DNA of 12,164 bases from a virus (Duplodnaviria; Heunggongvirae; Uroviricota; Caudoviricetes), in the IMG/VR virus record IMGVR_UViG_2698536471_000010. One strand, 5' to 3'. Positions within the stretch are counted from its first letter, which is position 1, and each line of letters begins with the position of its first letter. Below the pieces are notes generated by a model. That model saw nothing but the letters and a program-made list of their open reading frames with translations, did no database searches and had not been told where the DNA came from. The translations under genes were made by a program, and so were the position numbers. Positions 11,644-12,164 of the stretch are shown piece by piece.

Positions 11644-11676
11644 GAAAATAAAAACAAAAACCCGCCGAAGCGGGTT
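11644..11676 (-). terminator. Intrinsic terminator of the hok mRNA
   Basis: On the minus strand AACCCGC-TTCG-GCGGGTT followed by TTTTGTTTTTATTTT, about 70 nt after the hok stop. Confidence 0.65.
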
Positions 11677-11744
11677 AAGTGCGGGTGCGTTGAGGATGCC
11701 TGCCACATCAGAGGTGGCGAGGGATTTCTCCCTCGCCGGGTCTC

Positions 11745-11900
11745 TTACTCCTCAGGTTCGTAAGCTGTGAAGACAGCGACCTCCGTCTGGCCGGTTCGGA
11801 TTCGTACCTCGCAGAGGTCTTTCCTCGTTACCAGTGCCGTCACTATGACGGTTAAACAGATGACGATCAGGGCGATTAACATCGCCTTTTGCTGCTTCAT
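11745..11900 (-). CDS. hok: Hok-family type I toxin (51 aa), HokD/Gef-like
   Basis: MKQQKAMLIALIVICLTVIVTALVTRKDLCEVRIRTGQTEVAVFTAYEPEE: the Hok TM segment plus conserved C-terminal region, with a GGAG SD. An in-frame upstream extension gives a 70-aa mok-like ORF. Confidence 0.9.
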   Translation of the reverse strand: MKQQKAMLIALIVICLTVIVTALVTRKDLCEVRIRTGQTEVAVFTAYEPEE

Positions 11901-11957
11901 AGCCTGCTTCTCCTTGCCTTTCGGCACGTAAGAGGCTAACCTACATGTGTCTAGCAT
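11745..11957 (-). CDS. mok: Mok-like in-frame upstream reading frame (70 aa) overlapping hok
   Basis: ATG at 11957 in frame with hok (MLDTCRLASYVPKGKEKQA-MKQQ...), analogous to chromosomal mokC/hokC. Confidence 0.5.
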   Translation of the reverse strand: MLDTCRLASYVPKGKEKQAMKQQKAMLIALIVICLTVIVTALVTRKDLCEVRIRTGQTEVAVFTAYEPEE

Positions 11958-12000
11958 GAAATTGGCCTCAGATTAATGTTAAGCGTCTTGCAGGACGCGT
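11914..12000 (+). ncRNA. Candidate Sok-like antisense RNA and its promoter, opposite the mok start
   Basis: Plus-strand TTGCCT-N17-TAACCT would start transcription around 11950, antisense to the mok translation-initiation region. No clear terminator found; extent is a guess. Confidence 0.2.
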
Positions 12001-12140
12001 AATGTTAACTGGGGCTTTTCTCTATCTGCCTTTGGTGTTCATGCCTGAGACAGATAGCCTCAAGCACCCGCAGCCATTCTACTTAACTCCCGTTACCCCG
12101 CCAATATGAAATCAGTCAGAAAGGCGATCCATAAGAATAA

Positions 12141-12164
12141 TGAACCGCCCCGGGTTTCCTGGAG
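12141..12164. repeat. Right copy of the perfect 24-bp terminal inverted repeat
   Basis: Exact reverse complement of bases 2-25. Confidence 0.8.

Follow-up and report, generated by a model that had tools for sequence, protein, structure and literature searches.

The hok/mok/sok loci are type I toxin-antitoxin modules, and for one of them, hok/sok (parB) of plasmid R1, it has been shown that the hok mRNA undergoes slow 3′ processing, that its duplex with Sok is cleaved by RNase III and that killing follows the decay of Sok (PMC9841398). In the R1 locus the elements follow one another in the order promoter, tac, ucb, Shine-Dalgarno (SD) sequence of mok, in-frame mok, dcb, hok, 3′ stem-loop, fbi and terminator. 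The Sok-decay scheme has been shown in part also for hokW-sokW (PMC8621323), the pair of Sakai prophage 5 and 933W-type Stx2 phages; in this system, sokW RNA was detected on Northern blots, and the loss of protection against HokW in a promoter-less sokW mutant was made good by sokW in trans (Takada et al., PMC8621323). Two loci of Escherichia coli K-12 are also relevant here. In hokD (relF), which belongs to the Qin cryptic prophage, relBE is fused approximately 14 nt upstream of the hok ATG, and the locus is without the mok start, the Sok gene, tac, ucb and the hok promoter. In gef/hokC, an otherwise conserved hok locus is adjoined by IS186, which lies downstream and removes fbi.

Here, we describe a hok locus found near one end of a viral DNA stretch of 12,164 nucleotides, which we call the window. 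It is very probably a complete hok/mok/sok locus in the nin/Q region of a lambdoid E. coli prophage. Its toxin is HokD, but unlike K-12 hokD it has kept the whole regulatory region, and its most similar relative is hokW-sokW of Sakai prophage 5. Judged by its sequence, the locus is an ordinary module of this type, in which a hokD allele is joined to a complete regulatory region.

From the promoter –10 to fbi, the window is 93% identical to hokW-sokW over 426 nt: tac, ucb, dcb and fbi are identical or compensated, the 30-nt Sok promoter region is identical, and both loci have a 19-codon in-frame mok, a 51-aa Hok and a lambdoid prophage as their carrier. The two differ in 6 of the 30 nt of the Sok 5′/target segment, in the terminator region, in five of the last eight residues of the toxin (C-terminus TAYEPEE here versus VDYESEK in HokW) and in their position, which is the nin/Q region, from the HNH gene to rem, in our case and approximately 3 kb from the attachment site for hokW in the Stx phage. 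Furthermore, function has been tested for hokW-sokW, whereas the window copy is known from its sequence. All primers of Takada et al. have exact matches in the hokW copy used for these comparisons, that of Stx2 converting phage I (L003); in the same record, an unrelated Rfam match to sRNA-Xcc1 (5749–5837, 69 bits) lies about 2.4 kb from hokW.

The likeness to R1 concerns the architecture, since the order of the elements and the RNA logic are the same and the Sok promoter has the same place and the same 17-nt spacing. In contrast, the Hok proteins are 42% identical, the Sok/leader hairpin is approximately 21 nt longer here than in R1, tac and fbi pair as GGGUGC/GCACCC instead of GGCGC/GCGCC, the Sok –10 is TAACCT instead of TATCCT, and the replicon is a prophage rather than a plasmid.

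Extent, setting and public record of the locus

The locus proper covers positions ∼11650–12104, with the hok/mok side on the minus strand and the Sok gene on the plus strand. A sequence-only reading of the window had assigned the whole span 11644–12164 to hok/mok/sok; the module is present in that span, but positions 12141–12164 are the terminal inverted repeat of an IS629 element and not hok leader. The rest of that reading was borne out: the near-canonical 51-aa Hok, the in-frame mok-like leader, the 3′ stem-loop, the intrinsic terminator, the antisense promoter facing the mok start and the location on a prophage were all recovered by the analyses given below, with the toxin side on the minus strand.

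Genes for Rem, a DUF968 protein, RusA, a Q-like DUF1133 protein, a DNA methylase and IraM are found in the window, and holin and lysozyme genes are present in the matching annotated records of the prophage; all of these genes except iraM are co-oriented with hok. The rem, DUF968, RusA, Q-like, methylase and lysis genes confirm the placement on a prophage, in which the hok locus is flanked by an HNH endonuclease gene on one side and by rem on the other, within the nin/Q region. On the rem side, just past the hok terminator and ahead of rem (11528..11277), the minus strand has a promoter-like sequence, TTGAAG-18-TAGAAT (11607–11636), which may be the rem promoter. Elsewhere in the window, a minus-strand ORF of 654 aa (DUF1737/SASA-esterase/DUF6645, 4138–6102) is unbroken here and frameshifted by annotation in the two closest complete genomes (L001 and L002).

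Positions 11600–12144 (545 nt) are 100% identical to E. coli 2013C-4974, in which the gene is named hokD by PGAP. Of 5426 complete E. coli genomes, 3040 cover at least 80% of a 565-nt query, and the locus also occurs in many phage records. With RefSeq already naming these 545 nt hokD and with most of the query found in so many genomes, the locus is already a known one.

Hok, mok and the hokD allele of K-12

The toxin side comprises two nested reading frames:

11745..11957, minus strand: mok ORF of 70 codons from the ORF list, an in-frame 19-codon extension of hok, with the SD sequence GAGG at 11969..11966
11745..11900, minus strand: hok coding sequence, 51 aa plus stop, Pfam HOK_GEF, with its ATG at 11900 and the SD sequence AAGGAG at 11915..11910

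The Hok protein, encoded by the last 51 codons of the 70-codon ORF, reads MKQQKAMLIALIVICLTVIVTALVTRKDLCEVRIRTGQTEVAVFTAYEPEE; the 19 upstream codons of the mok extension read MLDTCRLASYVPKGKEKQA. Hok matches the Pfam model HOK_GEF (PF01848) along the entire model length (E = 3e-23, 81.6 bits, cutoff 22), and a scan against NCBIfam gave sub-threshold matches only, to Hok families (48.5 bits versus a cutoff of 73). The SD sequence of mok lies 8 nt upstream of its start, and hok is predicted to be translated through mok. An in-frame extension of 19 codons is found in 20 of the 32 hok loci of our family alignment (see below), including hokW and the R1-like locus. Longer in-frame extensions were observed in two of the 32, and the other 10 have no in-frame upstream ATG, so that mok, if any, would be in another frame in those loci.

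At the nucleotide level, the hok coding sequence does not differ from K-12 hokD, so that the protein, too, is that of K-12; overexpression of the HokD coding sequence is reported to be lytic. The K-12 hokD mRNA undergoes A-to-I editing changing a Tyr to a Cys codon, at a level of only 6% (PMC12214031), and the edited site corresponds here to the Tyr47 codon UAC at 11762..11760, in the context UACG. A TadA-substrate hairpin around this site was considered and rejected, in that the local fold leaves UACG outside the loop and is no better than shuffled sequences (z = –0.33); for this reason, editing is cited here only from the literature on the nucleotide-identical K-12 gene.

The window shares with K-12 hokD not only the coding sequence but also fbi, the terminator and the downstream neighbour rem, with a single base difference in the 3′ stem-loop (G.U in K-12 in place of A-U). 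Together with the PGAP name, HokD, these similarities to the Qin locus might suggest that the window holds a decayed remnant of the K-12 hokD (relF) type, namely a hok ORF without mok, sok and a promoter of its own. Against this stand the whole leader, present in the window, and the end of the K-12 homology at relE, approximately 14 nt upstream of the hok ATG; moreover, the Rfam leader model RF01794 matches the window, and a search of the K-12 hokD locus with the same model gave no match. The relBE fusion typical of K-12 was looked for in the window and is absent. The remnant reading is thus refuted and we give it practically no weight. Since the K-12 homology stops shortly before the hok ATG and RF01794 finds no match in K-12, the comparison of the two sequences shows the window to hold the complete form of the locus, and K-12 hokD to be a truncated remnant of it.

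RNA elements, Sok gene and family covariation

The elements predicted on the hok transcript, all on the minus strand, are the following:

12076..12104, minus strand: hok/mok promoter, TTGGCG (–35), 17 nt, TAGAAT (–10), sigma-70-like, from a promoter scan
11652..12069, minus strand: putative full-length hok mRNA of ∼418 nt, its 5′ end placed by homology with R1 and its 3′ end by the terminator
12058..12069, minus strand: tac, GGGUGCUUGAGG; its predicted partner is fbi before 3′ truncation and ucb after it
12011..12020, minus strand: ucb (anti-SD), GAAAAGCCCC; its predicted partner is the mok SD region before 3′ truncation and tac after it
11944..11965, minus strand: mok start/Sok target segment (mRNA 105–126), which includes the 7-nt loop CUAGACA and is complementary to the Sok 5′ tail
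11932..11936, minus strand: dcb, GCCUC; its predicted partner after 3′ truncation is the mok SD GAGGC
11716..11737, minus strand: 3′ UTR stem-loop of 9 bp with a GAAA loop, from folds and covariation
11683..11695, minus strand: fbi, CCUCAACGCACCC, 12 bp with tac and one bulged C
11650..11676, minus strand: intrinsic terminator, AACCCGC-UUCG-GCGGGUU (stem 11676..11659) and then a U run, from a terminator scan and the fold

The hok –10 is conserved in the loci encoding an identical Hok, and 6 nt separate it from position 12069, where the match to the Rfam leader model begins. At this putative 5′ end the transcript reads GGGUGCUUGAGG, and the R1-like plasmid copy reads GGCGCUUGAGG at the same place after its own –10. 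The leader (12069..11895) matches RF01794 along its full length (positions 1–157) with 118.3 bits (gathering score 59, E = 4.9e-27), far more than chance would give. The 3′ stem-loop reads GGCGAGGGA-TTTC-TCCCTCGCC on the plus strand and GGCGAGGGA-GAAA-UCCCUCGCC in the mRNA; it is presumed to protect the 3′ end of the truncated mRNA, by analogy with the analysis of R1 (PMC9841398).

The mRNA was folded by unconstrained free-energy minimization, with numbering from the putative start at 12069. The full-length molecule reaches –172.4 kcal/mol, compared with –126.8 ± 5.7 for shuffled sequences (z = –8.1). In this fold, nt 1–12 (tac) pair with nt 375–387 (fbi, 11695..11683), nt 50–57 (ucb, GAAAAGCC) pair with the mok SD region, and the hok start region is paired with codons 42–47. 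When the RNA is truncated just before fbi (12069..11699), nt 1–8 pair with nt 53–59 (tac/ucb) and the mok SD GAGGC (101–105) pairs with GCCUC of dcb (134–138); the resulting hairpin presents its 7-nt loop just 3′ of the mok AUG, with the AUG itself in the 5′ arm of the stem. In these folds, the predicted switch from tac/fbi to tac/ucb plus SD/dcb is the one described for the R1 hok mRNA (PMC9841398).

On the opposite strand, two features face the mok start:

11914..11942, plus strand: sok promoter, TTGCCT (–35, 11914–11919), 17 nt, TAACCT (–10, 11937–11942), from identity to sokW and alignment with R1
11949..12020, plus strand: predicted Sok RNA (∼70 nt, both ends putative), in which an unpaired 5′ tail of 9 nt precedes a long hairpin and a U-rich 3′ end

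A consensus promoter scan reported no Sok promoter on the plus strand because the –10 hexamer, TAACCT, matches the consensus at only three of six positions. Nevertheless, the site aligns with TTGCGC-17-TATCCT of the R1-like locus, and the 30-nt stretch 11912–11941 is identical to probe YO-597 of Takada et al. (PMC8621323), that is, to the sokW promoter region, which bears out the earlier proposal of an antisense promoter. The promoter is kept in at least 48 of 79 loci with an identical toxin. The putative Sok start has the same 7-nt distance from the –10 as its R1-like counterpart; the plus-strand fold from 11949 (–30.3 kcal/mol, z = –4.5) has the shape of Sok, and the predicted tail and 5′ arm together form the complement of the target loop, the mok AUG and the SD sequence. 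As reconstructed from primers YO-421 and YO-422, the promoter-less mutant of Takada et al. would change exactly this –10 hexamer, from TAACCT to GAGCCG. At the level of sequence, therefore, the Sok promoter of the window is the same as the functionally validated sokW promoter.

The Rfam match called sok was rejected as a proof of the antisense gene, in that RF01794 lies on the hok-sense strand and ends at the hok AUG. In fact, this model, named ‘sok antitoxin,’ describes the hok mRNA from its 5′ end to the hok AUG, not only in the window (11895–12069) but also in hokW (L003, 3223–3397) and in the R1-like locus (L005, 282–453), so that strand calls resting on it are misleading.

The pairings could be compared across the family. 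From contigs representing one genome per species 53 loci were collected, and the 32 intact ones, from Escherichia, Kluyvera, Pseudocitrobacter, Citrobacter, Photorhabdus, Pantoea and Erwinia and with an R1-like plasmid, were aligned, the hokW and R1-like loci having been added. When the full-length structure of the window is imposed on these 32 loci, 85.4% of the cells are paired, compared with 37–44% when the partners are slid by 1–3 columns, and 44 pairs are changed on both sides, compared with 12–24 in the slid versions and 28.7 ± 2.6 in shuffled ones (0 of 500 shuffles reach 44); because the imposed structure is that of one of the aligned loci, the paired percentage is biased upward to some extent and the double-change counts less so. 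The tac/fbi helix is 91% paired, and one of its pairs occurs as UA in 23 loci, CG in seven and UG in two, unpaired in none; the 3′ stem-loop is 94.6% paired and has four pairs with compensatory changes. The tac/ucb helix is 99% paired and the SD/dcb pairs (GAGGC:GCCUC) are conserved in 31 of the 32 loci. This core is near-invariant, and its support is conservation and not covariation.

Among 79 loci encoding an identical Hok, variation along the transcript peaks in approximately 20 nt around the mok AUG (11944–11965), the segment that specifies both the Sok 5′ seed and the target loop. At least 10 alleles of it occur among these loci, the window allele being found in eight, while the flanking SD sequence, dcb and Sok promoter stay fixed. 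Tentatively, this segment could be a hypervariable specificity cassette stopping cross-repression between hok/sok copies of co-resident prophages, an idea that we consider possible rather than probable; a search of a limited literature collection for Sok cross-talk among paralogues found nothing specific.

Taken as a whole, these elements would operate as follows. A weak constitutive promoter would give rise to the ∼418-nt hok mRNA, in which the pairing of the 5′ tac with the 3′ fbi, and of ucb with the mok SD sequence, would make the full-length RNA neither translatable nor accessible to Sok. Slow 3′ trimming would strip the terminator and fbi, after which tac would pair with ucb and the mok SD sequence would be held in the SD/dcb hairpin, the loop of which would present the Sok target. 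As long as Sok is made from its convergent promoter, it would pair across the mok start and the duplex would be destroyed. When Sok synthesis stops, because of prophage loss, transcription shut-off or prophage induction, mok would be translated and hok with it by coupling, and the 51-aa Hok would permeabilise the inner membrane.

The IS629 end and the activity of the locus

The upstream flank of the locus contains one further feature:

12141..12164: terminal inverted repeat of IS629, TGAACCGCCCCGGGTTTCCTGGAG, the end next to the orfB 3′ end, an exact 24-mer match to the IS ends in L001, one of the two closest complete genomes

Only these last 24 nt of IS629 are inside the window, beyond the end of which the element continues, and uninterrupted relatives diverge from the window after 12144. 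One of the IS3-family copies in L001 shares 99.8% identity with the IS629 annotated in phage BP-4795. The insertion lies in the spacer after the HNH endonuclease gene and upstream of the hok promoter, 36 nt away from the –35 and 72 nt away from the putative transcription start; judging from the orfB-stop end, the transposase genes (orfAB) would point toward hok, in its same direction. The junction was not encountered elsewhere: none of the best matches in complete E. coli genomes extends past 12144, no IS629 end occurs within 700 nt in 80 IMG/VR loci with an identical toxin (0/80), and a search of a limited literature collection for an association of IS629 with hok found nothing specific. The sequence-only reading had raised the worry that the leader might be disrupted just beyond the window; an IS629 end is indeed present at 12141, but it is outside the leader and cuts no element of hok or sok.

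The proximity of the element raises the question of whether it has altered or silenced the locus, either by removing upstream promoter context or by giving rise to 5′-extended read-through RNAs in which tac would no longer be at the 5′ end. The short distance to the –35 and the orientation of orfAB toward hok would fit such an effect, and the literature links IS elements to the inactivation of hokA, hokC and hokE in K-12; moreover, an IS629-type element follows the hok stop codon immediately in a sister strain. On the other hand, the –35, the –10, the start and the entire transcript are untouched and identical to those of uninterrupted relatives. In the one K-12 case for which a position was found, that of gef/hokC, the IS186 is downstream and removes fbi, whereas here IS629 is upstream of the promoter and leaves the transcript whole. 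Finally, IS629 has no sequence target specificity and is found mostly in prophages (PMC3271280), and its proximity to hok may be due to chance. We consider an alteration of hok by IS629 unlikely.

In the sister strain just mentioned (OkiPb01713, NZ_AP042682.1, L002), the IS629-type element (∼15770–17035) begins 1–2 nt after the hok stop in a prophage that is otherwise 99% identical. This insertion severs the 3′ stem-loop, fbi and the terminator from hok, and in this it parallels the IS186 downstream of K-12 gef/hokC.

An intact-looking hok locus can be physiologically quiet, and one may ask whether this is the case for the complete locus described here, which would then be transcribed and fully repressed, would cause no killing upon loss, rifampicin treatment or induction, and would be a passenger carried along by the spread of prophages. 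The chromosomal hokA, hokB and hokC, when tested, are reported to show neither post-segregational killing nor activation by rifampicin, and the editing of only 6% of K-12 hokD mRNA from Tyr to Cys (PMC12214031) may limit the toxicity of the allele. However, in hokW-sokW, which shares 93% identity and the Sok promoter with this locus, toxin and antitoxin function as a pair and react to induction of the prophage (PMC8621323); the strong purifying selection on the RNA pairings and the compensatory changes argue for an ongoing function, and the same leader is kept in 77 of the 80 IMG/VR loci with an identical toxin. We regard a silent passenger locus as unlikely. No IS lies inside the transcript, and tac, fbi, ucb, dcb, the SD sequence and the Sok promoter are all intact; these cis elements, the HokD toxin, the sokW promoter and the retention of the leader suggest that the complete hok/mok/sok locus would be active and its toxin harmful to the host. 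The Sok –10, with its three-of-six match, and the IS629 copy close to the hok –35 call for some caution here. By analogy with hokW-sokW, the most plausible role of the locus would be the release of Hok when Sok transcription stops on prophage induction or prophage loss.

The importance of the locus beyond its annotation is slight, in that published work already covers the family, the RNA switch, the enrichment in prophages and, with hokW-sokW, a relative of 93% identity whose function has been demonstrated. The window provides an example of the intact form of the K-12 hokD locus, and the presence of IS629 on either flank of hok in different strains offers natural variants for testing which flanks matter.
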